Notes under the pieces: model-generated
What the model saw: the letters and a program-made list of their open reading frames with translations, nothing else
The model's database searches: none
What the model was told of the DNA's origin: nothing
NCBI GenBank assembly: GCA_903851135.1
Contig: CAINNK010000023.1
Location: 1-53,534, forward strand
Source: an uncultured bacterium
Lineage (GTDB): Bacteria > Patescibacteriota > Minisyncoccia > Moranbacterales > GWC2-37-73
Direction: 5' to 3'
DNA: 53,534 nucleotides
In this document: piece by piece, positions 9,966-25,867 of the stretch
How the letters are laid out: every line of letters starts with the position of its first letter
How positions within the stretch are numbered: the stretch's first letter is position 1
Made by a program: the position numbers and the translations under genes

Positions 9966-10835
9966 TTAATTTTCTTCAAGAAAATTGAGAATATCTTTGA
10001 AGACGTGTTCATTTTTGATGTCGGGAATGAAAGTATGATAGGCTTTTTGAATATAGATTTTCTTTTTTTTCTTGGAACTTATTTTTTCATAAATTTTTTC
10101 CATACTATCTTTGGCGACCATGTGATCATGGGTAGATTGAAGCAACAAACATGGTTGGGAAATGCTGCCAAGATTTTTGCGCGCCCGCCTAACCAACTCA
10201 AAAACTTCCAACACGCTGGCCACCGGATAACTTTGATAAGAAATCATCCTGGTGATACTCTCAGCTGAACCGAAAGTCGGCGGATAAAATTTGGTGCGGT
10301 ATTGCTTTGGATTAAGACAGAGCGCTAGTTTTACCAACACCACTCCGATTTTTTCGTGGCGCAATTTGTGTGGAGTGGCCATCAGCACAAGGCCAGCCAT
10401 CTCCTTTTCTTGCTCCGCCAAAATCAAGGCGATGCTTGCCCCAATGGAAGTGCCGGCCACATACACCTGGTCGCAAGTTTCTTTCAATTTCCCATAGCCC
10501 TTTTCCACGTCAGTAATCCAATCCTGAGCCGTCACGTTTTCCAAATCTTTTGGCACCGTGCCGTGACCGGAAAGCATCAAACCCAAAACGGTATAACCAT
10601 TTTCATTGAGATATTTCCCTAGTCGGCGAACTTCATAAGCTGTTGATGACCAACCATGCACCAACAAAACTCCTTTGCCATTTGAACCTGCCTCACCGGC
10701 AGACGGGCCTGCCAAAAAAAACGGCTGATTGATCAGCTGCCGCTCTTGTTTGTATAAAAGTTTTGGATCAACGAAGAGAATACTTTTCGCTTTTCCAACA
10801 GCCTTTTCTGCAAATTTTAGGAGTTGTTTTACCAT
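9966..10835 (-). CDS. Alpha/beta hydrolase (carboxylesterase/lysophospholipase-like)
   Basis: LLVHGWSST oxyanion region, GTSIGA (GxSxG nucleophile elbow) and a C-terminal QSTHDHMV...AYH typical of the acid and His residues. Confidence 0.75.
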   Translation of the reverse strand: MVKQLLKFAEKAVGKAKSILFVDPKLLYKQERQLINQPFFLAGPSAGEAGSNGKGVLLVHGWSSTAYEVRRLGKYLNENGYTVLGLMLSGHGTVPKDLENVTAQDWITDVEKGYGKLKETCDQVYVAGTSIGASIALILAEQEKEMAGLVLMATPHKLRHEKIGVVLVKLALCLNPKQYRTKFYPPTFGSAESITRMISYQSYPVASVLEVFELVRRARKNLGSISQPCLLLQSTHDHMVAKDSMEKIYEKISSKKKKKIYIQKAYHTFIPDIKNEHVFKDILNFLEEN

Positions 10836-10928
10836 GCTTTTATACTTCCAACTCTAACCTTTTTAGCGTCTTTTTGCAAGAAAAAAGCTGCACTTGATGG
10901 CAGCCTGAAAAATGCACACTTATTATGA

Positions 10929-11537
10929 CTATTTTAGAAATTCCTTTGCTTGTTTTTTCTTGTAAAGTGTAATAGCGATGAAAGAAATGATGGCGGCTGC
11001 AAAAATAATCCAACCAACCCAACTGATGTATTGCTTGATACTTCGCCAAAGATAACCATAAAAATATCCCATTGCGACCAAAAAGCCGCTCCACACCACT
11101 CCGCCCAACAAAGAATATTGCAGAAATTTTTTGAAATCCATTTTCACAATGCCAGCAGTGACGAAAGTTGCCCAACAAAGTCCCGTGGTTGATTTGACTG
11201 CAAAAATTGTTGTGCCGCCATGCTTTTGAAAATATTTTTCCATTCTCAAAACCAACTTTTCCGTAATGCCCAGATATTTTCCTGGACCGTGCACAAAACC
11301 CATACCCCATTTGCGCCCTGCGCCATAAAGTAGCACATCGCCAAGCATATCACCCAAAATTGAAAACAAAAGCACCACTGGCCAAGCAAAAGCCCCTAGT
11401 GAGGCCAGCATTGCCGCAATGATGGTCACAACTGGCCCCTCCACGATCATCAGCGGCAGCATGGCGAAATAGCCGTAGTGTTTGAGAAATTGAAAAATGA
11501 TTTGTCCTGTTTGCTCCATCCGGTAGTAGAAATTCAA
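10929..11537 (-). CDS. DedA/VTT-domain membrane protein (paralog 1)
   Basis: LKHYGYFAMLPLMIVEGP...ILGDMLGDVLLY..GRKWG is the DedA signature. Multiple TM segments. Confidence 0.8.
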   Translation of the reverse strand: MNFYYRMEQTGQIIFQFLKHYGYFAMLPLMIVEGPVVTIIAAMLASLGAFAWPVVLLFSILGDMLGDVLLYGAGRKWGMGFVHGPGKYLGITEKLVLRMEKYFQKHGGTTIFAVKSTTGLCWATFVTAGIVKMDFKKFLQYSLLGGVVWSGFLVAMGYFYGYLWRSIKQYISWVGWIIFAAAIISFIAITLYKKKQAKEFLK

Positions 11538-11690
11538 ATGGGCTATGCCCAGTAAAATTCCAATGTTTAAAGTTGACTTATTAATTTATCCAGCAGCAAT
11601 GAACTAATTATAGAATATATTTTTTGAATTCTCACTACCGGATCCATTTTTAAATTATAAACCTAGTTAATAAATATTGAAAGCAAAAAA

Positions 11691-12281
11691 CTATTTTAAA
11701 AATTCTTCTGATTGCTTTTTCTCATAAAACCCAAGCACGACAAAAATGACAATTGTGACAACCAAAATAACAATCCCGGCCCAACTGACATAGCGCGCGA
11801 TGCTTTTCCAGAGATAACCATAGAAATAGCCCATCGCCACAAAAAAACTGCTCCAAGCAATCGCGCCCAAAAAAGAATAGCGCAAAAATTTTTCAAAATT
11901 CATTTTCACAATCCCAGCTGTGATAAAAGCCAGCAAATAAGGGCCTGTCATTGATTTGACCACAAAAAGAGTTTTGCCACCGTGCCGGTGAAAATATTTT
12001 TCCATTTTCAGCACTCGCCTTTCATTAAGCCCCAGATATTTTCCCCAGCCGGCCGCAAACTGCATGCCCCAACGATAACCCACCCAATACAAAATCACAT
12101 TGCCAATCAAATCTCCCAGAATTGAAAAAAACAAAACCAAGGGCCAGAAGAAAACTCCCAACGAGGCCAAAACCGCCGCCACAATGGTTGCCCCCGCTCC
12201 TTCCACAATCATAAGCGGCAGCATCGCAAAATAGCCGTAGTGTTTGAGAAAATCAAGAGTCAATTGTCCGAGTTGATTCAT
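11691..12281 (-). CDS. DedA/VTT-domain membrane protein (paralog 2, tandem duplicate)
   Basis: Collinear with the neighbouring DedA over its full length, including the identical block LKHYGYFAMLPLMIVEG and MGYFYGYLW. Confidence 0.8.
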   Translation of the reverse strand: MNQLGQLTLDFLKHYGYFAMLPLMIVEGAGATIVAAVLASLGVFFWPLVLFFSILGDLIGNVILYWVGYRWGMQFAAGWGKYLGLNERRVLKMEKYFHRHGGKTLFVVKSMTGPYLLAFITAGIVKMNFEKFLRYSFLGAIAWSSFFVAMGYFYGYLWKSIARYVSWAGIVILVVTIVIFVVLGFYEKKQSEEFLK

Positions 12282-12371
12282 ATATTTTTATTCTACGACG
12301 GATCGGGAAATAAAAACAGATTGCGCCCATATGGGAATAATCTGTTAAACAAAAAACCTCTTTTGAATCAG

Positions 12372-12755
12372 CTACTCTTCCATTTGATTTGAATTAGATT
12401 CAAAAAGTTCGGAGATCAAAAATTTTGCTTCTCGATACTCATCCGGTCCCCTTTTCCCCGCCCATTTCAAGAGAAGCTTTTGTTCTGAATTTTTAATCAA
12501 CATAATCCCGGCTTGAAATCTTGGCCTGAGAATATTGTCGACAGAATAAAGATAGTAAAAGGCAACGCATTCGACTATCACTAAAACATACAGAACAAGC
12601 TCGATAAAAAGTGAGGCCATATCCTTAAAAAGCATAGCAAAGATAAACACATGCCAAACCGCATATAAGACATTCATAAGACACCGGCTTTTACGATCTT
12701 TCAAAAAACTTTCGAGCATTGCTCTAAGCTTGGGTGAATAATTCAATTTATTCAT
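12372..12755 (-). CDS. Hypothetical small membrane protein
   Basis: 127 aa from ATG 12755 (AAAGGA SD 7 nt upstream). It has two hydrophobic helices (VWHVFIFAMLF; LVLYVLVIVECVAFYYLY). No recognisable family. Confidence 0.45.
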   Translation of the reverse strand: MNKLNYSPKLRAMLESFLKDRKSRCLMNVLYAVWHVFIFAMLFKDMASLFIELVLYVLVIVECVAFYYLYSVDNILRPRFQAGIMLIKNSEQKLLLKWAGKRGPDEYREAKFLISELFESNSNQMEE

Positions 12756-12947
12756 GAGAATTCCTTTGTTTGATTTTTCAAGAACAAAAAATGACTTTGA
12801 AGTGTACAATGACAACGATAAAATGTCAACAAATGCGCTAAGCATGCCCTCCCCTTGATTTATTTTTTATCTATGATAGACTATCCACTGTTACTGACTT
12901 GAGACAATTTTTGGTCTTTTTATTTTTTCCAAATTCATGTTTTCCAT

Positions 12948-13018
12948 GGCGCTATCGTCTAGTGGTTAGGACACCAGGTTTTTCAGCCAAAGGCTGACCA
13001 CCCCTTGGGTGGCATCCT
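12948..13018 (+). pseudogene. tRNA-Glu 5' fragment carrying a 30-nt insert inside the anticodon, truncated in the anticodon stem
   Basis: 12948-12982 matches the intact tRNA-Glu at 13289-13323. A 30-nt insert follows (12983-13012), then catcct, and homology ends at 13019. Confidence 0.8.
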
Positions 13019-13034
13019 AGCGTTGACTACAATT

Positions 13035-13283
13035 ATGTACTATGTTTATATAATAAAAAGCAAGTTAAAAAAATATTATTATATAGGAAGCACGGAAGAT
13101 TTAAAAAGACGTTTTGAAGAACACAATAGCGGAAAAACCAAATCAATAAAACATCTCATTCCTTTTGAACTTGTTTATTACGAGGCATACAGGGAGAAAG
13201 TTTTAGCTAGAACAAGAGAAATTGATTTAAAGAAGAATAGTTTTAGAAAGAAAGAGTTATTAGATAGAATTGAAAATTTTTAG
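13035..13283 (+). CDS. Small stand-alone GIY-YIG nuclease domain protein
   Basis: 82 aa: MYYVYIIKSKLKKYYYIGSTEDLKRRFEEHNSG...YYEAY....A..RE..LK, the GIY-(x10)-YIG, R and E..N core of the GIY-YIG/URI superfamily. No extra DNA-binding domain. Confidence 0.8.
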   Translation: MYYVYIIKSKLKKYYYIGSTEDLKRRFEEHNSGKTKSIKHLIPFELVYYEAYREKVLARTREIDLKKNSFRKKELLDRIENF

Positions 13284-13288
13284 TATAT

Positions 13289-13363
13289 GGCGCTATCGTC
13301 TAGTGGTTAGGACACCAGGTTTTCATCCTGGTAACAGGAGTCCGATTCTCCTTAGCGCTACCA
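13289..13363 (+). tRNA. tRNA-Glu (anticodon UUC), CCA encoded
   Basis: Hand-folded cloverleaf: acceptor ggcgcta/tagcgct, D arm gtct-agtggtta-ggac, anticodon arm ccagg-ttTTCat-cctgg, T arm aggag-tccgatt-ctcct, discriminator A, then CCA. Confidence 0.9.
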
Positions 13364-13370
13364 AATAAAT

Positions 13371-13460
13371 CTTCGGTTAGAACCCCAGGTTTTTCAGCCA
13401 GAGGCTGACCACCCCCTGGGTGGCATCCTGGTAACAGGAGTCCGATTCTCCTTAGCGCTA
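13371..13460 (+). pseudogene. tRNA-Glu-like copy with degenerate 5' part, 30-nt anticodon insert and intact 3' half
   Basis: cttcggttagaacccc resembles the D arm. It carries the same insert as 12983-13012 with two substitutions. The 3' half (13424-13460) matches the real tRNA exactly. There is no 5' acceptor strand. Confidence 0.75.
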
Positions 13461-13473
13461 CAAATTTTTAAAA

Positions 13474-13494
13474 GCCCCACGAAATGGGGCTTTT
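13474..13494 (+). terminator. Terminator hairpin after the tRNA-Glu copies
   Basis: Stem gcccca / tggggc, loop cgaaa, then tttt, with AAAA upstream. Confidence 0.6.
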
Positions 13495-13512
13495 AAATTT
13501 GTCTAGAGATAA

Positions 13513-13616
13513 GAGAGAATCGGACGGGCGCGAGTAGGATGCGAGCAAGTGCGAGCATTCTGTGTGTAGCGCCCCAGCTTCGAGTCAGAGCGAAGAAGCG
13601 ATTCTCCTTAGCGCTA
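13513..13616 (+). other. Hairpin element capped by the tRNA-Glu 3' end (T-arm-antisense arm, ~73-nt GC-rich core, T-arm 3' strand plus acceptor 3' strand)
   Basis: gagagaatcgga (13513-13524) is the reverse complement of the tRNA T-loop/T-stem tccgattctc. The core is 13526-13598. The element ends with cgattctccttagcgcta, identical to the tRNA-Glu 3' end. Confidence 0.7.
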
Positions 13617-13626
13617 CAAACAGAAA

Positions 13627-13657
13627 ATCCCCAGCATTTATTGCTGGGGATTTTTTG
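13627..13657 (+). terminator. Strong rho-independent terminator
   Basis: Stem atccccagca / tgctggggat (10 bp), loop tttat, then tttttt. Confidence 0.8.
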
Positions 13658-13775
13658 CCTAACGATAATGGGAGCTTCCAGAGGACCATCCTCCATCAGT
13701 GTCTAATCTTAATATTACAAACCACCATACAAAAGAAACTTTTTCAAAAATAGTTCCTAGATGTGTACTACATGA

Positions 13776-13812
13776 AAAATTAAATGCGGTTATCTTTAAT
13801 AGATAACCGCAT
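13776..13812 (-). terminator. Terminator downstream of the isochorismatase-family gene
   Basis: Stem atgcggttatc / gataaccgcat (11 bp), followed on the minus strand by a T-rich run. Confidence 0.6.
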
Positions 13813-13846
13813 CACAAATAAAAAAGCAGCCAAGGAACTGTAGAAG

Positions 13847-14389
13847 TTAAACAGACATAGAAAATTCCAAAACATTATCAATACAATTGCCGTTAGACTT
13901 AAACCACTCAATGCTATTATCAAGGCTATGGAATTTTTGACCTGAGATAACTTCATTGCTTGTTATAATCCGATACCCTAGATAAATTGCATGCTCTGCT
14001 GTGCTTTTGACACAATAATCGGCATTAATCCCCATGATTAAAAGATTTTCAACCCCAATTGATTTCAAGTAAGAATTTAATCTAGTTTCTTGAAAGCCAC
14101 TGTTGTAATCTTTTTTAATTACGCGACATTTAGGAGCCTTCAGTGCCGCTCTCAAAAGAATTTTAATAGTGTGTCCATAGTTATAACTTTTTAATTCCAA
14201 AACTACAACTGGGATCTTAGCCCTCACACAATGCTTCAAGACGGCAAGCTGTCTTGCTATTATGCGCTCAGCCTCTCCGTCTCTTAACCTTCCAACAAAC
14301 TTTTCTTGCATGTCGATCAACACAACAGCAAGATTGCCGGAATCTTTAATTGGCTGCTTTTTCACAATACCTCCTTTTTTTAATTTCAA
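13847..14389 (-). CDS. Isochorismatase-family cysteine hydrolase
   Basis: VVLIDMQEKF (catalytic Asp region), a conserved Lys region, and GINADYCVKSTAEHA, which is the DxCV catalytic Cys motif. Confidence 0.8.
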   Translation of the reverse strand: MKLKKGGIVKKQPIKDSGNLAVVLIDMQEKFVGRLRDGEAERIIARQLAVLKHCVRAKIPVVVLELKSYNYGHTIKILLRAALKAPKCRVIKKDYNSGFQETRLNSYLKSIGVENLLIMGINADYCVKSTAEHAIYLGYRIITSNEVISGQKFHSLDNSIEWFKSNGNCIDNVLEFSMSV

Positions 14390-14753
14390 GTTTAGTAAAT
14401 TGCCTCAAGCTCTCAACAAAAGATCAAAGCAATCTACTAAAAGTGAAACCACAATAATTCAAAGAACAACAAAAAAGGATAGCATTTTATTGACTTTTTG
14501 TCAAACGAAAACACAAACAAAAGTACGAAAAATCCCCTAAGAAGGCCTTTAAGTTACATTTAAACTACAAAGGAACCAGACCGATAGGATTGAAAATTGA
14601 GCCAAGATAAGAAAGAAGTTAATAACAAGTTATGAACATATTACAGCTTTTTAGCTGTTATTAATGAAAAATAATGATTTATAATATAAATGAAGACAAG
14701 ACCTTGCTTAATATAGAGAAGCCTATGGAGGACCATCATCTGCTAGAATTTCA

Positions 14754-14794
14754 TTTTCATCTTGGTAACAGGAGTCCGATTCTCCTTAGCGCTA
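14754..14794 (+). pseudogene. tRNA-Glu 3' half fragment (starts in the anticodon loop)
   Basis: ttttcatcttggtaacaggagtccgattctccttagcgcta has one mismatch to the 3' half of the real tRNA. It is followed by a decayed copy of the 13627-13657 terminator. Confidence 0.8.
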
Positions 14795-15025
14795 CAAACA
14801 AGAAATCCCCAGCATTTATTGCTAGAGATTTTTATTTATCTGGCAATAAAAAAACCAGACCAACATAAACTTTCAGAGTACCATCTCTATTGTGGACTAC
14901 GTTTTTACAAAAAATAACGTGATACAATTATTTTTTCTATAAATATTGACATGCAATGCAAAATACCCTATAAAACTAGTAGCTTGCTTCTAACATGAAG
15001 CTTAATTTAACAAGGGAGATTGCTG

Positions 15026-15385
15026 ATGAAAATCGTTATTGAGAATAGTAAACCGGTCATTCAGGGACTGCCCAATGGCAATGTAACTATGTTTTTTGCC
15101 AAAATCAACGAACGGCGAGGATATTGCGTCGTGTTTGGACCAGCAGAAGAATGTTTGTTTCCTGAAGGGACAAGAATGAACGAGCTAATCTCTACCAAGG
15201 TTGCGTTCGGAACTATTGATTCCGAAATGGAAATTGTAAGAGTGACGCACGGACACAAATACGCACAAGGTGGTGGTTTTGTCGACTTTCAGGACGATAA
15301 GCAAATCTTCTTCCGCCTGTCGGGAGATGAAAAACTCAGCACCTATGAAGGAACACCCATCGAGGAAGTCTACGAGGTCATTTGA
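15026..15385 (+). CDS. Hypothetical protein
   Basis: 119-aa ORF with a GGGAG SD 8 nt before ATG 15026 and its own terminator. No recognisable motifs. Confidence 0.5.
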   Translation: MKIVIENSKPVIQGLPNGNVTMFFAKINERRGYCVVFGPAEECLFPEGTRMNELISTKVAFGTIDSEMEIVRVTHGHKYAQGGGFVDFQDDKQIFFRLSGDEKLSTYEGTPIEEVYEVI

Positions 15386-15413
15386 AAAAATCAAACATAC
15401 CAGAACAATTAAA

Positions 15414-15444
15414 AGGAGCTACGTTTTTACAGTAGCTCCTTCTT
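15414..15444 (+). terminator. Terminator after the 15026-15385 ORF
   Basis: Stem aggagctac / gtagctcct (9 bp), then tctt. Confidence 0.55.
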
Positions 15445-15543
15445 AATTAATTCCAATAAAAAAACAAAATCTAATCAAGTTACGATTATCGAGGAGCACA
15501 AAAATGTTCCTCGAATGCTTTTCAATCCCTTTCACATTGTTTT

Positions 15544-15693
15544 TTACTGAAGAACATTTCTGCCCTGCAGCAACCTGACGACAATCAAGACCAAAGCAAT
15601 GACAAGCAAGATATGAATCAGGCCGCCAAGTGTGTAGGAACTAACAAGTCCCAAAAGCCAAAGAATCAACAAAACTGCAATTATTGTCCACAT
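15544..15693 (-). CDS. lmo0937-like small membrane protein (49 aa, below ORF-track cut-off)
   Basis: Hand translation gives MWTIIAVLLILWLLGLVSSYTLGGLIHILLVIALVLIVVRLLQGRNVLQ. This matches the M.WTI...L..LWLLG......GG.IH.LLVIA.....RL..GR pattern of the lmo0937/DUF5670 family. Confidence 0.65.
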   Translation of the reverse strand: MWTIIAVLLILWLLGLVSSYTLGGLIHILLVIALVLIVVRLLQGRNVLQ

Positions 15694-15740
15694 ATTTTTT
15701 TGTAAGTTAATTATTATTTATCAAAAATAAAAACTTGTTT

Positions 15741-16136
15741 TTAAGAAATTTGGCGATTGCCGGAAAGAATCCTGATCAATTTCACAATACCCCAGGCCAC
15801 AACTGCATAAACAATAAGTGCCACCAAGGTTTCAGGTTCGAGAACTGCTTTTGTTTCTACTCCTGGAGCAAAACCTCTGCGAAAAATGCCAACGAAAGGC
15901 AAAATGAAAATTCCACTGAGAACATAGATGAGACTCACGAAACCGCTTGTCAGACTTGCGCCAGCTAATTTAAACACCAAGCGAAAAGCCAACAGCACCC
16001 CCAATATTCCAAACAAAAAATAGACCAGACGTTCAGACGTCAGCGAATTTGTCGCATCTCTGCTGGTCGGAGTTTTCGCAATTGTGTTTGCATTAGTTCC
16101 TGGGATGCTTGTGGTTTCTTTTGTAATAATTGTCAT
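15741..16136 (-). CDS. Hypothetical membrane protein
   Basis: 131 aa with three predicted hydrophobic helices and a Thr-rich N-terminus. No family assigned. Confidence 0.5.
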   Translation of the reverse strand: MTIITKETTSIPGTNANTIAKTPTSRDATNSLTSERLVYFLFGILGVLLAFRLVFKLAGASLTSGFVSLIYVLSGIFILPFVGIFRRGFAPGVETKAVLEPETLVALIVYAVVAWGIVKLIRILSGNRQIS

Positions 16137-16373
16137 ATTTTTTCACTTCCGCTAGTTTAATTACCTTATCTCAAAACTCAACCTTTAATCATTGTTTCTT
16201 TTGGCAAATATCAACGCTGCAATTATAGTACCATCAGACAAGGGCCATATTTCAACAAATGCAAATCTATCTAAAAGTAAAAGCTCCCGAGTGACTGTCT
16301 TGCGCTAGGCTCTTGTTACCAAAGTTGCCTGGAAAAATCTCATAGCTTAAACCCCAAGAATTTCCAATCCAAC

Positions 16374-16396
16374 AAAAAACCTAGCTTTAAGCTAGG
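16374..16396 (-). terminator. Terminator overlapping the sigma-factor stop codon
   Basis: Stem cctagc / gctagg with loop tttaa, and a T6 run on the minus strand. Confidence 0.5.
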
Positions 16397-17201
16397 TTTT
16401 CTTTTCTTTTCTATCTTCCTTGTCCTCTTTCACTACCTCCAACAATTTCTTTTTGGCACGATTGATGATGGTTCCGACCGTGTTGACTGGCTTGCCCAGG
16501 GCTTTGCTAATTTGCTGATAAGAGTACTCTCTGAAATATCGCATGTAGAGTATCTGCCGGTACGGTTTTGGCAATTTCTTGAGGGCCTCGGTTATTTCTT
16601 GCGTGATTTCCTGATGAAGCCAAACCGCCTCAATTGGCTCTTCACTGCTAGCCGTGTCCAATTTGTCTTTGCTGGTTGTGATATCCTCCCAGGACACAGT
16701 GTAGCGCTTGCTTTTGCGTTTCAAGTGATTGACAGCTTCATTGTGAGCGATGCGATATATCCAAGATGAAAACTTGCGAGTCAAATCAAAATTTTTGATG
16801 TTCTTGTAGGTTTTGGCAAACACATTTTGCAAAATATCTTCCGTTTCGTCCCGATCTCTGGTCAGGCGATAAATATACACAAAAAGTTTTCGTTGATAAC
16901 GCTTGAAAAGATCGCTATAAACTTCGCGGTTTTCTCTTTGGGCAATTTCAATCAATTCGGCGTCGCTCAGTTCATCACAATTTCTAATCTTGGTTCTTTT
17001 GCGATAAAATCTTTTGTTGCCAATCAGAAAAACTTCATATTCAGGGGCTTTTCCAAGGTTTAGCAAGTTTTCAACCACCCCTTTCTTGCGCCGAGAAAAA
17101 CACACTTCCGAATCCGCCAATGACGACTTCTTCTTGTCTGTTGCCTTTTTTGCAGTTTTCAACTTTTTTTCAACTGCAACGCTTTTCTTTTTGACGGCCA
17201 T
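16392..17201 (-). CDS. Sigma-70 family (ECF-type) RNA polymerase sigma factor with Lys-rich N-terminal extension
   Basis: Region 2 is RYQRKLFVYIYRLTRDRDETEDILQNVFAKTYKNIKNFD...FSSWIYRIAHNEAVNHLRK. Region 4 HTH is LPKPYRQILYMRYFREYSYQQISKALGKPVNTVGTIINRAKKKL. Confidence 0.85.
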   Translation of the reverse strand: MAVKKKSVAVEKKLKTAKKATDKKKSSLADSEVCFSRRKKGVVENLLNLGKAPEYEVFLIGNKRFYRKRTKIRNCDELSDAELIEIAQRENREVYSDLFKRYQRKLFVYIYRLTRDRDETEDILQNVFAKTYKNIKNFDLTRKFSSWIYRIAHNEAVNHLKRKSKRYTVSWEDITTSKDKLDTASSEEPIEAVWLHQEITQEITEALKKLPKPYRQILYMRYFREYSYQQISKALGKPVNTVGTIINRAKKKLLEVVKEDKEDRKEKKT

Positions 17202-19718: not shown

Positions 19719-22433
19719 ATGAAAGAACTGCCAAAAATATACGAACCGCAAAAAGTTGAAAGCGAAATTTATGCCCGCTGGGAAGCAAGCGGCTTCTTCC
19801 AGCCAGAGGCTGGTCAGCATCTAGCTGATAATCCTGACACGAGAGAGACCTACTGTAATATCCTGCCACCACCGAATGCTAACGGCGAACTTCACATTGG
19901 ACACGCCAGTGGCTACACCGTGATGGATATTTTTGGCCGCTATAATCGCATGAACGGCAAGAAAACCTTGCTCTTGCCTGGCAAAGACCATGCTGGCATT
20001 CAAACTCAAGTAGTTTTTGAAAAAAAATTGCAAACCGAGCTCGGCATAACTAGACAGGAACTTGGCCGCCAGGAATTTTACAAAAAAACCTATGCTTTCT
20101 GCCTGGATCGCGCCAACTATATGCGCAGCCAGGAAAAAAAGATTGGCATCAGTGCCGATTGGTCACGTGAAAAATTCACGCTTGACCCAGATGTGCTCTC
20201 AAGCGCCCTCCAGACCTTTGTAAAAATGCATGAGGACGGTTTGATCTACAAAGGCAAACGCATCATCAATTGGTGCCCACGTTGCGGCACAGCCCTTTCT
20301 GACGTAGAAGTTTTGCACAAAGACACGCCAGGCAAACTATATTTAATCAAATATCCGCTCGAAAATTCAGACTCCACCCAAGGCGGATTAAAAGAATTTA
20401 TTACCGTAGCCACCACCCGTCCTGAAACCATGCTTGGTGACACAGCCATTGCCGTTAGTCCCAAAGACGAGCGCTTTAAAACTTTGGTTGGCAAAAATGC
20501 CATCCTGCCTTTGCAAAACACTATCATCCCAATCATTGCTGACCATCGAATTGACCTTGCTTTTGGAACCGGCGCTGTGAAAATCACACCAGCTCATGAC
20601 CCGCTCGACTGGGAAATTGGCCGAGATCACAACCTTGCAGAAATTCAAATCATTGATGAAAAAGCCTTGATTACTGAGTTTGGTGGAAAATATGCTGGCA
20701 TGACAACTCACGAAGCTCGCGAGGCGGTTGTTAAAGATTTGGAAAAACTTAATCTTTTGGAAAAAATCGAAGACCTGGCTCACAGCGTTTCAATTTGCGA
20801 ACGTTGCAAAACTACCATCGAGCCCCTGACTTCCAAGCAATGGTTCATTGATGTTCAAACCTTGAAACAAAAAGCCATCACGGCAATTGAAAATGGCGAG
20901 ATTGAAATTTTTCCCAACAATTTCAAAAAAATTCTCATTGATTGGTTTGGCAACATGCGCGATTGGTGCATCAGCCGTCAAATCTGGTGGGGACCGCAAT
21001 TCCCAGTTTGGTATCGGCCCAAGGCCGACCAGCCTAGGGCTGGTTGCACGGATGACGATATGGAAATGTATGTAGGGTTAACACCACCAGAGGGCGCTGG
21101 TTGGGTTCAAGATGAAAACACTTTTGACACCTGGTTTACTTCTGGCCAATGGGTGCACACAACTTTGCAAGCTCACGGCGATGATTTCAAAACTTTTTAT
21201 CCAACCGACATGATGATCACCGGCCGCGATTTGCTTTTTTTCTGGGCTTCGAAAATGATCATGATGAGCCTTTATGCTACTGGTAAAGTGCCTTTCAAAA
21301 ATCTTTTTTTCACTGGCTTAGTGCTCGACAAAGAAGGCCACAAATTTTCCAAATCTCGCGGCAACGGCATTGACCCGCTCACGATGATTGATAAATTCGG
21401 CGCCGATGCCCTGCGCATGAGTTTGATTATGGACTCTGCTCCCGGTCAAGACTCACGACTCTATGAAGAAAAAATCGAAACTTTCCGCAATTTCGCCAAC
21501 AAACTTTGGAACATCTCCCGCTATTGTCTGACACAAGAAGGATTTGAATTGGTGGAAGAAATTTCAAATGAAGATTTGAAAACAGAATCAGATAGTTGGA
21601 TAATTCGTAAATTAGATGAAAATATTTTTGAAATTAACAAGCTTTTTGAAAGAAAACAAATCGCTGTCGCTGCTGATATTTTAAAAACTTTCACTTGGAA
21701 TGATTTCGCTGATTGGTATTTAGAAATCAATAAAATCGAAAAAAATCAAAAAGTTCTTGGCTATGTTTTAGACAAACTTCTAAGGCTCTGGCATCCGTTT
21801 ATGCCCTTTATTACTGAACAAATTTGGACATTAGCCCAGCAAGAAAAAATGCTGATGATTTCAAGCTGGCCAAAAACACTTATTTGGAATGAAAATAATG
21901 AAGTAAACCCTAATAAAGAAAACAGTCAATGGAACGAGGTCACTATAAGAGGCTACAATGTTATTGAAAGTAATTTAAAACCAATGATTACCGCATTGAG
22001 AAATATTAGGGCTGAAAATAAAATTGAATCAAATAAAAAAATTAGAATTGTCATCAATGGAAATATAAATGCAGTTCAAGAAATTGAAAAAACTAACCAA
22101 GCAGAAATCATCATGAGTCTCAGAACAGGAGTCGAATTTATTAGCTATAACCAACCAGAAGCTGGATTAAAAAATATGCTTAAAAGAACAGTTGGTACAT
22201 ACACCTTATTAGTTGATCTCACTGGTGCCATCGACACTGAAAAAGAAACCGCTAAAGCTGAGAAAGAAATTGCCAATTTGGAAAATTTCATCGCAGGACT
22301 TTCCGGCAGACTTTCAAACCAAGAATTTGTTTCCAAAGCACCGACGCAAGTCATCAACCAACAAAAAGAAACCCTGACCAAAAAACAAGCCGAACTTGCC
22401 GAGCTCAAAAAGCATTTAGCTAGTCTTACATAA
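19719..22433 (+). CDS. valS: Valine--tRNA ligase
   Basis: PPPNANGELHIGHA (HIGH), KFSKSRGN (KMSKS), a CP1 editing domain and a C-terminal coiled coil. 904 aa. Confidence 0.95.
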   Translation: MKELPKIYEPQKVESEIYARWEASGFFQPEAGQHLADNPDTRETYCNILPPPNANGELHIGHASGYTVMDIFGRYNRMNGKKTLLLPGKDHAGIQTQVVFEKKLQTELGITRQELGRQEFYKKTYAFCLDRANYMRSQEKKIGISADWSREKFTLDPDVLSSALQTFVKMHEDGLIYKGKRIINWCPRCGTALSDVEVLHKDTPGKLYLIKYPLENSDSTQGGLKEFITVATTRPETMLGDTAIAVSPKDERFKTLVGKNAILPLQNTIIPIIADHRIDLAFGTGAVKITPAHDPLDWEIGRDHNLAEIQIIDEKALITEFGGKYAGMTTHEAREAVVKDLEKLNLLEKIEDLAHSVSICERCKTTIEPLTSKQWFIDVQTLKQKAITAIENGEIEIFPNNFKKILIDWFGNMRDWCISRQIWWGPQFPVWYRPKADQPRAGCTDDDMEMYVGLTPPEGAGWVQDENTFDTWFTSGQWVHTTLQAHGDDFKTFYPTDMMITGRDLLFFWASKMIMMSLYATGKVPFKNLFFTGLVLDKEGHKFSKSRGNGIDPLTMIDKFGADALRMSLIMDSAPGQDSRLYEEKIETFRNFANKLWNISRYCLTQEGFELVEEISNEDLKTESDSWIIRKLDENIFEINKLFERKQIAVAADILKTFTWNDFADWYLEINKIEKNQKVLGYVLDKLLRLWHPFMPFITEQIWTLAQQEKMLMISSWPKTLIWNENNEVNPNKENSQWNEVTIRGYNVIESNLKPMITALRNIRAENKIESNKKIRIVINGNINAVQEIEKTNQAEIIMSLRTGVEFISYNQPEAGLKNMLKRTVGTYTLLVDLTGAIDTEKETAKAEKEIANLENFIAGLSGRLSNQEFVSKAPTQVINQQKETLTKKQAELAELKKHLASLT

Positions 22434-25770: not shown

Positions 25771-25867
25771 GGGATTTGAAGGGCGCGAGTAAAATGCGAG
25801 TGTGCGAGCATTTTGTGCGCAGCGCCCAGGCTCCGAGTCGGAGCGAGGAGAAATCCCTCACAGCGCA
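25771..25867 (+). other. Hairpin element capped by the tRNA-Lys 3' end (homologous core to 13526-13598)
   Basis: gggatttgaa (reverse complement of T-loop ttcaaatccc), a 70-nt core (25781-25850), then aaatccctcacagcgca, which equals the tRNA-Lys 3' end. The 54 bp from aaatccc onward exactly repeat 25706-25759. Confidence 0.7.

Follow-up and report, generated by a model that had tools for sequence, protein, structure and literature searches.

In a 53,534-nt stretch of DNA from an uncultured bacterium of the Patescibacteriota (contig CAINNK010000023.1, positions 1 to 53,534; hereafter the window), a 30-nt insert that can fold into two hairpins occurs twice within the anticodon of tRNA-Glu sequences. 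This twin-hairpin (TH) insert belongs to a structured, multi-copy and optional family of elements and is not the intron of a working gene. The tRNA-Glu copies that bear it are dead fragments surrounding a nuclease gene and a replacement tRNA-Glu, so that no splicing needs to be assumed. The reading that we favour, with a probability of about 0.62, is that TH is a family of short (30-nt), GC-rich DNA elements with two hairpins, dispersed in Patescibacteria (the candidate phyla radiation, CPR) and some Bacteroidota, which are selfish and linked to GIY-YIG cassettes that target tRNA genes.

The insert has the form T-CAGCC-N3-GGCTG-A-CCACCC-N3-GGGTGG, and its two copies are listed with the other features in Table 1. 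An earlier note, made from the letters of this DNA, had placed both copies between tRNA positions 35 and 36, inside the anticodon. Alignment with the intact tRNA-Glu gene bore this out: the insert separates T35 from C36, and other registers do not fit. The same note was right that the copies differ at two positions only, both in the 3-nt loops (AAA/AGA and CTT/CCT), with 12/12 stem pairs kept, and that 30 nt is too short for a group I intron; an Rfam search of 12700-13800, at gathering thresholds and at E ≤ 10, returned only tRNA and no intron, ribozyme or known small RNA. Because the flanking T and A also pair, the stems comprise 6 bp and the unit consists of two abutting hairpins, each with a 6-bp stem and a 3-nt loop (15 + 15 nt). 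As single-stranded DNA, the 30-mer is predicted to form two perfect hairpins (-10.7 kcal/mol; z = -4.5 and -3.3). Its GC content is 63-73%, as compared with 39% for the whole window, and the motif without its leading T (12984-13012 and 13395-13423) matched the window twice, versus 0.00 matches expected (100 shuffles). Position 8 of the insert pairs with position 23, as A-T in copy 1 and as G-C in copy 2. The two loop substitutions (A8 to G, T23 to C) are therefore not independent but form a compensatory pair, in keeping with the loop-loop complementarity seen across the family (see below). When the window was scanned with the covariance model R1, filters off, four TH copies were found, two at tRNA-Glu and two in the open reading frame (ORF) of valyl-tRNA synthetase (ValRS).

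Neither insert-bearing copy is a whole tRNA, since copy 1 lacks the T arm and copy 2 starts at position 17. The idea of two interrupted tRNA-Glu genes had thus to be replaced by that of 5' and 3' pseudo-fragments on either side of a GIY-YIG ORF and an intact tRNA-Glu, the latter being presumably the functional gene. The 5' pseudo-half with the 2 bases upstream of it (12946-12982) is identical at 37/37 positions (100%) to the 5' half of the intact gene (13287-13323). The segment 12948-13025 scores 18.5 bits with the Rfam tRNA model (gathering score 29), and ARAGORN makes no call there. The nuclease ORF begins 22 nt past TH copy 1 and its stop lies 5 nt ahead of the intact tRNA-Glu. A 55-nt direct repeat, which takes in a portion of the D arm as well as the anticodon arm and the insert (12964-13018 versus 13375-13429, 51/55 identical), bounds the inserted segment. 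A promoter-like site (12899-12926) precedes the 5' pseudo-half, and a terminator scan placed a terminator-like hairpin after the tRNA-Glu 3' pseudo-half (13467-13497).

Table 1. Features of the window that relate to the TH insert, with the evidence for each.
Feature	Coordinates	Strand	Evidence or sequence
tRNA-Glu 5' pseudo-half, positions 1-35	12948-12982	+	ggcgctatcgtctagtggttaggacaccaggtttt
TH copy 1 (TH-A type), TCAGCC-AAA-GGCTGA / CCACCC-CTT-GGGTGG	12983-13012	+	model R1, 45.2 bits, E 7.7e-10; TCAGCCAAAGGCTGACCACCCCTTGGGTGG
tRNA 3'-side remnant after the insert: catcct (36-41) fused to agcgttg (acceptor-3'-like), T arm missing	13013-13025	+	sequence; Rfam alignment
82-aa ORF, bare GIY-YIG nuclease domain (UPF0213/SLX1-like)	13035-13283	+	Pfam PF01541, 6.5e-16; PDB 1zg2 UPF0213, 1.5e-6
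Intact tRNA-Glu(UUC)	13289-13363	+	ARAGORN; Rfam RF00005, 62.3 bits; ccaggttttcatcctgg
Short 5' piece, tRNA positions 17-35 with 2 substitutions, ahead of TH copy 2	13375-13393	+	ggttagaaccccaggtttt
TH copy 2, TCAGCC-AGA-GGCTGA / CCACCC-CCT-GGGTGG	13394-13423	+	model R1, 46.0 bits, E 4.7e-10; TCAGCCAGAGGCTGACCACCCCCTGGGTGG
tRNA-Glu 3' pseudo-half, positions 36-76	13424-13462	+	repeat match, 3'-end motif search; catcctggtaacaggagtccgattctccttagcgctaca
Extra duplicated tRNA-Glu 3' end	13600-13620	+	preceded by GC-rich ~90-nt element 13511-13599; terminator 13621-13657 after it
tRNA-Glu 3' fragment starting in the anticodon loop, no twin hairpin, duplicated terminator	14749-14798	+	repeats
TH copy in the ValRS ORF, in frame QPEAGQHLAD, one mismatched stem pair	19799-19828	-	model R1, 38.7 bits, E 3.6e-8
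TH-B copy in the ValRS ORF, TCGGCC-CAA-GGCCGA / CCAGCC-TAG-GGCTGG, in frame RPKADQPRAG	21014-21043	+	model R1, 35.3 bits

We considered the possibility that the insert is a new bacterial mini-intron, excised from transcripts by an unknown endonuclease and ligase, which is close to the intron-like reading that the earlier note implied. This would account for the location in the anticodon loop; stacking of the hairpins brings the two junctions next to each other, which could make excision easier; and the rRNAs of CPR bacteria are known to carry intervening sequences. Yet, out of 69 TH copies at position 35/36 of tRNA-Glu, none lies in a complete tRNA, which would have a D arm before the insert and a T arm after it, and all of them have an intact gene as neighbour. 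No bulge-helix-bulge (two 3-nt bulges and a 4-bp helix) is present in the fold predicted at the insert, where the junctions lie at the hairpin bases. Furthermore, the copies found in ORFs measure 30 nt and those of the canonical subtype (TH-A) occupy stop-free hydrophilic frames only, as expected if they are translated, and inserts of 31-34 nt are confined to fragments of RNA genes. An intron of this kind is, in our opinion, hardly credible.

The same architecture was found in other genomes (L### and P### are the labels of compared loci and of protein relatives of ValRS, respectively). The exact motif matched 25 loci in a species-representative genome collection, nearly all in metagenome-assembled genomes (MAGs) of Patescibacteria, and 65 metagenome contigs. 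These searches had been suggested in the earlier note, with the absence of further copies or the disruption of their stems as the adverse outcome; the copies proved numerous and their stems preserved. Viral contigs gave no exact match, and there was no sign of phage carriage. The order at tRNA-Glu is constant and comprises the 5' pseudo-half, TH, 6-15 nt of the tRNA sequence that follows, the GIY-YIG ORF, starting 8-40 nt beyond TH, and the intact tRNA-Glu. This layout (L009, L012-L014, L016, L021, L023 and L024 have pseudo-half, TH, ORF and intact tRNA-Glu) recurs in dozens of Patescibacteria MAGs and some Bacteroidota MAGs, often with a trailing short 5' piece, TH and 3' pseudo-half (the window, L005, L013 and L014; also L002, L006 and L201). 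With few exceptions, a TH copy in a tRNA-Glu 5' fragment is followed by such an ORF. A strict ORF pattern found the GIY-YIG ORF after 25 of the 34 TH copies that have a D arm upstream; upon inspection, the other nine mostly corresponded to variant N-termini missed by the pattern, or to truncated contigs or ORFs. In L014, the flanking halves have the acceptor stem GGCCCGT/ACGGGTC and the central tRNA has GCCGCCA/TGGCGGT, a difference indicating that the cassette brought its own tRNA-Glu into a split resident gene. Tandem arrays (L024, L130, L164) and decayed nuclease ORFs (L005, L031) were also seen. The succession of pseudo-fragment, hairpins, GIY-YIG ORF and intact tRNA was found as well with a second subtype, TH-B (L233, L195, L296), and the same design with other TH types at tRNA Asp, Gln and Ser.

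A generic finder of twin hairpins returned 548 matches, among them ordinary tRNA arms, and was too noisy; motif-anchored and context-anchored searches and the model R1 were used in its place. The context-anchored scan relied on the tRNA-Glu flanks only (GGACNNCAGGTTTT-N28-34-CATCCTG) and gave 80 rows, some half of which are chance matches in unrelated DNA. It revealed many different twin hairpins at exactly 35/36 of tRNA-Glu, several of them from Bacteroidota MAGs, with stems such as TCACCC/GGGTGA, TCCGCC/GGCGGA, TCAATC/GATTGA with TCAGTC/GACTGA, CCAGCC/GGCTGG, CCAACC/GGTTGG and TCCGGC/GCCGGA, and some with 4-5-nt loops. In an alignment of 32 distinct 30-mers from the tRNA-Glu site (A1), the two stems are 97.9% and 99.0% paired, values inflated by the fact that part of the alignment came from the motif-anchored search. 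The compensatory types in A1 are free of this inflation, since they were taken from the context-anchored search. Changes on both sides affect 7 of the 12 pairs, and the covariation score of A1 amounts to 0.456, versus 0.129 after shuffling (reached in 0/500 shuffles), and collapses when the partners are slid. The family consensus is YCNNCC-N3-GGNNGR, twice, the elements beginning with T/C-C and ending with G-G/A.

The loops do not vary freely but, unexpectedly, covary with each other. In A1, the two loops of an element are complementary at 78% of the positions, as compared with 56.6 ± 2.9% in shuffled sets (0/500), and in two larger sets all three loop pairs are formed in 51/124 and 29/71 copies, as compared with shuffled means of 28.9 (maximum 43) and 16.5 (maximum 25), respectively. 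Due to this complementarity, the whole 30-mer is an imperfect palindrome, with 81% pairing if it is folded into a single long hairpin; the insert of L161 is a perfect 30-nt palindrome. A kissing-loop RNA pseudoknot was considered as the reason for it and judged unlikely for 3-nt loops, DNA dyad symmetry being preferred.

We also considered that TH might work in RNA, as leader hairpins that stabilize the mRNA, tune translation or prevent mispairing of the pseudo-half with the tRNA, the downstream copy protecting the 3' end of a transcript started from the resident tRNA promoter. The orientation of TH is fixed at tRNA-Glu, at the short distance from the start codon given above (8-40 nt); the promoter-like and terminator-like sites of the window precede the 5' and follow the 3' pseudo-half, respectively; and the anticodon stem is predicted to form a three-way junction with the two hairpins (-13.2 kcal/mol). 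If RNA were the selected molecule, however, the copies in ORFs should not occur in both orientations without bias (32:29), and G·U pairs should be commoner than mismatches, instead of which A1 contains 3 cells with the former and 6 with the latter. It is hard to see what dyad symmetry and loop-loop complementarity would serve in RNA, and TH is also present where no ORF follows. We therefore consider an RNA function unlikely. The absence of orientation bias and of a wobble excess, the dyad symmetry, which creates the same hairpins on both strands, and the retention in frame all point to DNA as the selected structure. Of the earlier proposal of selection on a folded RNA or DNA, the structural constraint on the stems thus stands, with the evidence in favour of DNA over RNA.

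Copies of the family also lie at sites other than the tRNA-Glu anticodon. In a census of 74 distinct canonical copies, 26 were at tRNA-Glu 35/36, at least 12 in T loops of tRNA fragments (GGTTC^AAATCC), 2 in D loops, 4 in duplicated 5' ends of 16S rRNA and 7 in ORFs of at least 250 aa, the rest being intergenic. The 16S site, AGAGTTT^GATCCTGG, resembles the tRNA-Glu site, GGTTTT^CATCCTGG. TH-B occurs in at least 119 stretches of the genome collection, with several copies per MAG (e.g. in at least 8 contigs of one Paceibacteria MAG), and is also found in tRNA D loops, T loops and tRNA-Glu 35/36. Long ORFs (at least 250 aa) contain 61 of 125 distinct TH-B copies, 32 in sense and 29 in antisense orientation, and all six frames are used. 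Its sequence has a stop codon in no frame, whereas the canonical subtype has stops in two; 7/7 TH-A copies in long ORFs use a stop-free, hydrophilic, Pro/Gly-rich frame, encoding QPxADHPxGG or HPxGGQPxAE depending on the orientation. Being in frame in long protein genes in either orientation, TH copies in ORFs are apparently translated. Both subtypes share a target consensus, TT^SA, with T at -2 and -1, C or G at +1 and A at +2, and no flanking target duplication was found at inserts of either of them.

The ValRS gene of the window (19719-22433) contains two such in-frame 30-nt inserts. At the site of QPEAGQHLAD, the ValRS of T. thermophilus has a 9-residue gap. The other insert, RPKADQPRAG, is shared by a ValRS fragment (P0001, 52% identical) with the same 10 residues at the same site, which is empty in P0002 and P0007; the protein search gave distant, fragmentary relatives only (≤52% identity). 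The second ValRS site (PVWY^) carries the same element in several other Patescibacteria ValRS genes, being occupied in L188, L215, L241, L258 and L259, and is empty in others. Canonical copies in frame were observed in a DnaG-like primase gene (antisense, HPAGGQPQAE), at one recurrent site of a family-1 glycosyltransferase (QPTADHPQGG) and in another long ORF (SHPAGGQPEAE), the loci being L001 (5925-5953), L004 (5015-5044), L301, L305, L335 and L310/L344. In L017, L309, L319 and L361, a duplicate of the first ~15 nt stands ahead of the 16S gene and is split by TH within the site of the 27F primer (AGAGTTT^GATCC); L017 has, in addition, a stray 3' fragment of a tRNA that separates this duplicate from the real 16S start.

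The nuclease ORF encodes 82 residues, of which 1-70 are covered by the GIY-YIG domain. Its ATG at 13035 is supported as the start by the conservation of the N-terminus, MYYVYI, in homologues. A profile of 20 homologues (A3) matched UPF0213 proteins in the PDB with values of 3e-18 (BH0048) and 1e-13, SLX1 with 1.7e-5 and I-TevI with 8.7e-4; the invariant residues of A3 are Y5, Y16, G18, R26, H30, E50 and E62. The Slx1/YhbQ/YazA family of GIY-YIG proteins has been described (PMC7017083). By homology to the ORF, 79 loci were retrieved, roughly 35 of which have an intact tRNA (Glu, Ala, Lys, Val, Ser, Arg, Asp, Leu or Gln) on the same strand, 5-30 nt past the stop. A duplicated 5' part of the matching tRNA lies upstream, with a breakpoint that is specific for the class: 35/36 for Glu, the T loop for Asp, the D loop for Gln, Leu and Ser, and 11/12 for Ala, Lys and Val. 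A twin-hairpin match was present within 150 nt upstream of the ORF in 15/79 loci, ~13 of which were genuine by inspection, against a background of 3.7% per 150 nt. Protein subfamilies track tRNA identity and breakpoint, the Glu class sharing GKTKSIKH...LKKNSFKKKEL, and this tracking of the target resembles the behaviour of homing-endonuclease lineages. In cassettes upstream of tRNA-Ala, -Lys, -Val and -Arg (L037, L039, L044, L050, L061-L063 and L066), only the first 11-13 nt of the tRNA are duplicated, and a conserved CCCTCACC motif follows in place of a twin hairpin, a junction that is a distinct type for a sister nuclease subfamily.

TH could also be an independent selfish mini-element inserting at TT^SA sites, with no functional tie to the nuclease. 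Such sites are available in tRNA loops and at the 16S 5' end; in essential RNA genes, the element would survive only in dead duplicates, produced incidentally by the nuclease cassettes, and would then be carried along in their pseudo-halves. Most TH copies are indeed far from any GIY-YIG ORF, for instance in ORFs; a 5' pseudo-fragment, TH and an intact gene are found with no nuclease ORF in L272, L240 and L218, as are the 16S duplications mentioned above; and several different hairpin inserts pile up in the pseudo-fragments of L002, L009, L023, L123 and L131. A mere passenger would hardly be expected, however, at exactly 35/36 in 7/8 of the tRNA-Glu-associated loci fetched by GIY-YIG homology, nor exactly at the respective breakpoints of the Ser, Asp and Gln cassettes. 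In addition, the two-ended form (window, L014, L005) has TH on both broken ends of the resident gene and looks like part of the inserted unit. We regard this explanation as possible but doubtful.

The position of TH exactly at the breakpoint in every cassette class could alternatively mean that it is an immunity or anti-recombination insert, which destroys the nuclease site 35/36 in the leftovers, in the way that an intron interrupts the site at which it homes, or prevents the cassette from being deleted by recombination. Yet the intact tRNA-Glu of the same cassette keeps an identical, unprotected site, the copies in ORFs and intergenic DNA would be left unexplained, and TH stands at the end of the homologous tract and not inside it, so that it would not block recombination. 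These observations make such a role very improbable.

In the window, the resident tRNA-Glu gene has been split at 35/36, with both halves capped by TH and the nuclease ORF and replacement tRNA-Glu placed between them. The favoured reading, a selfish DNA element linked to the cassettes, suggests the following scheme. The hairpins would act at the level of DNA, as extruded hairpins, a cruciform or single-stranded DNA, and would be kept by selection or by intrastrand correction as a structure that is recognized or processed during spread. A structure-specific nuclease of the SLX1/UPF0213 type may cut at or beside them; the GIY-YIG protein is a candidate for the cognate enzyme because it belongs to a branch whose characterized member, SLX1, cuts branched DNA. 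TH and GIY-YIG might thus be a pair comparable to REP and RAYT, and the cassette of nuclease and tRNA might work as a homing unit by which resident tRNA genes are replaced.

Besides the inflated stem conservation of A1, several points weigh against this reading. The link between TH and the nuclease is one of adjacency only; most TH copies have no neighbouring GIY-YIG gene, and ~66/79 of the GIY-YIG loci sampled have no TH, the Ala/Lys/Val class using the 11-nt duplication plus CCCTCACC in its place. The nuclease, of just 82 aa, has no DNA-binding domain. Simple sequence-specific homing would leave immunity unexplained, since the intact tRNA-Glu of the cassette keeps the anticodon arm of the resident gene. 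Stem covariation in a palindrome can come from intrastrand template correction with no selection, and the fixed orientation of TH at the tRNA-Glu site may still reflect an RNA role there. We advance the wider proposal only tentatively, namely that TH and the 82-aa GIY-YIG proteins of the SLX1/UPF0213 type form an unrecognized bacterial mobile system, with a structure-specific nuclease acting on TH modules, translated 10-aa inserts in essential CPR genes and nuclease-driven cassettes that would destroy a resident tRNA gene and bring in a replacement, as in an addiction-like exchange of tRNA genes.

Other observations concern the surroundings of the cassette. In the T arm of the intact tRNA-Glu (13336-13350), the T loop reads TCCGATT and not the usual TTCGAAT, as it also does in L016, L055 and L201; position 55 is thus C in the window and its closest relatives, versus a near-universal U (Psi55). 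A remnant of the C-terminus of a second GIY-YIG ORF is found at ~14583-14598 (within 14575-14600; gataggattgaaaatt, 94% identical to 13263-13278), 150 nt before the tRNA fragment at 14749. The 1.1-kb segment between the duplicated tRNA 3' ends (13660-14748) holds an isochorismatase-family ORF (13847-14389, minus strand; Pfam 5.8e-19), a layout reminiscent of L005, where a cargo of 1.1 kb is enclosed by two fragments capped with hairpins. A GC-rich non-coding element of ~75-90 nt, unrelated to TH and with no match in Rfam, is present at 13511-13599 and 25779-25852, and also in L008 and in the region upstream in L240; its core is GGGCGCGAG-N6-GCGAG...GTGCGAGCATTYTGTG...AGCGCCC...GAGTCRGAGCGA. 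It starts with the reverse complement of the T arm of the neighbouring tRNA (after tRNA-Glu and after tRNA-Lys) and ends in a direct copy of the 3' part of the T loop and the 3' strand of the acceptor, plus a duplicated terminator, and seems to be a further insertion by which tRNA 3' ends are duplicated. Yet another GC-rich palindrome, CCTGCCTGCCGGCAGGCAGG, with variants such as CCTGCCTGAGGCAGG, is inserted in the D loop of pseudo-tRNAs in L009, L012, L023, L077 and L151 and occurs in L003 (~1112) and L010 (~5608); it is probably another family of hairpin elements in the same genomes. Remnants of integrase att sites were rejected as the main cause of the repeated tRNA 3' ends, because the ORF list and Pfam showed no integrase among the ORFs in 10000-17000 (nor any transposase), and because the fragments break in loops carrying TH or another GC-rich element and flank a 0.44-kb cassette.

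We found no description of TH in the literature searched by topic, by element strings and by peptide strings, and the family is apparently undescribed. If our reading is correct, it represents an unnoticed dispersed mobile element of the CPR, uniting in 30 nt features of several known kinds of repeat (the double-hairpin elements, RPEs and REPs compared below). It would explain the recurrent 10-residue Pro/Gly-rich inserts in essential CPR proteins (ValRS, the DnaG-like protein, glycosyltransferases) as well as the clutter of tRNA and 16S fragments around RNA genes, with consequences for tRNA and rRNA annotation and for quality checks of MAGs. The large, function-unknown UPF0213/YhbQ branch would gain a testable role, in selfish cassettes that target tRNA genes and possibly act on hairpin DNA, and TH would provide a compact natural system to study the recognition of structured DNA and its copying between genomes.

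TH works like several known systems rather than being a member of one of them, because defining features of each fail (organism, size, partner enzyme, intragenic location). The closest known kind is that of the mitochondrial double-hairpin elements (DHEs) of Allomyces, other chytrids and Schizosaccharomyces octosporus and osmophilus (Paquin, Laforest & Lang 2000, as reported in PMC2800124 and PMC10085805). According to the latter two papers, DHEs are optional between relatives and multi-copy; they are found between genes, within rRNA genes and, now and then, within protein genes, cause no flanking duplication and are not removed from transcripts, and their sequences hardly change from one species to another, the differences being in the loops. 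TH is likewise short and GC-rich, with two adjacent stem-loops in an AT-rich genome, and forms dispersed optional copies (intergenic, rRNA, protein genes) with no flanking duplication, the ValRS sites being occupied or empty. It differs in being bacterial and not organellar and fungal, in its size of ~30 nt and strict 6-3-6 | 6-3-6 design with loop-loop complementarity, and in its strong link to tRNA loops and to GIY-YIG plus tRNA cassettes; the likeness concerns the architecture only. The GC-rich PstI palindromes of Neurospora mitochondria, which flank tRNA genes, and the GC clusters of yeast mitochondria (both cited in PMC2800124 and PMC7218506) are also GC-rich in AT-rich genomes, concentrated at tRNA genes, mobile and recombinogenic, some being translated within var1. 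They are organellar, differ in sequence and architecture and are not known to come with a cassette of nuclease and replacement tRNA.

Bacterial group I introns and archaeal bulge-helix-bulge introns of tRNAs also interrupt the anticodon loop and sometimes the anticodon itself. They belong to complete, functional genes and have a ribozyme core or a bulge-helix-bulge motif, neither of which is found at the TH insert. The missing duplication and the short target consensus TT^SA fit the palindrome-associated elements (PATEs) derived from IS200/IS605; no TnpA was seen in the loci inspected, however, and the hairpins of TH form the very ends of the element and are not subterminal. These three models, and that of split or permuted tRNA genes, were all considered.

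The Rickettsia palindromic elements (RPEs), which Ogata and colleagues reportedly described in 2000, are said to be in-frame inserts of about 100-150 bp restricted to Rickettsia. To our knowledge, they have no associated nuclease and no twin-hairpin design. TH resembles them, as far as they are so described, by its in-frame insertion in protein genes and differs by its size, host and twin-hairpin design.

For the cassette, the nearest parallel is SegB of phage T4, a free-standing GIY-YIG endonuclease whose gene lies in a tRNA region and not inside an intron, and is preferentially inherited together with the flanking tRNA region (PMC2330249). As with endonucleases of the SegB type, a GIY-YIG gene stands among tRNA genes, Tyr, Tyr, Arg and Glu are conserved, and the lineage is tied to one target gene and site. 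SegB and I-TevI possess DNA-binding domains, whereas the nuclease of the window consists of a catalytic domain of 82 aa and nothing else, with UPF0213/SLX1 as its nearest relatives. Unlike SegB, the cassette splits the resident tRNA gene and supplies a replacement, and it has hairpin elements at its junctions.

REP/BIME sequences with their RAYT proteins (REPINs; described in part in PMC3733652 and PMC3184786) are extragenic, carry a GTAG/CGTC tag and have an HUH/Y1 transposase as partner, whereas 61/125 TH-B copies are in ORFs and TH has no such tag and a GIY-YIG neighbour. They are also small GC-rich palindromes with many copies, often arranged as doublets, and with a dedicated enzyme whose gene is flanked by the repeats, and offer the model for the putative pair of TH and GIY-YIG nuclease.

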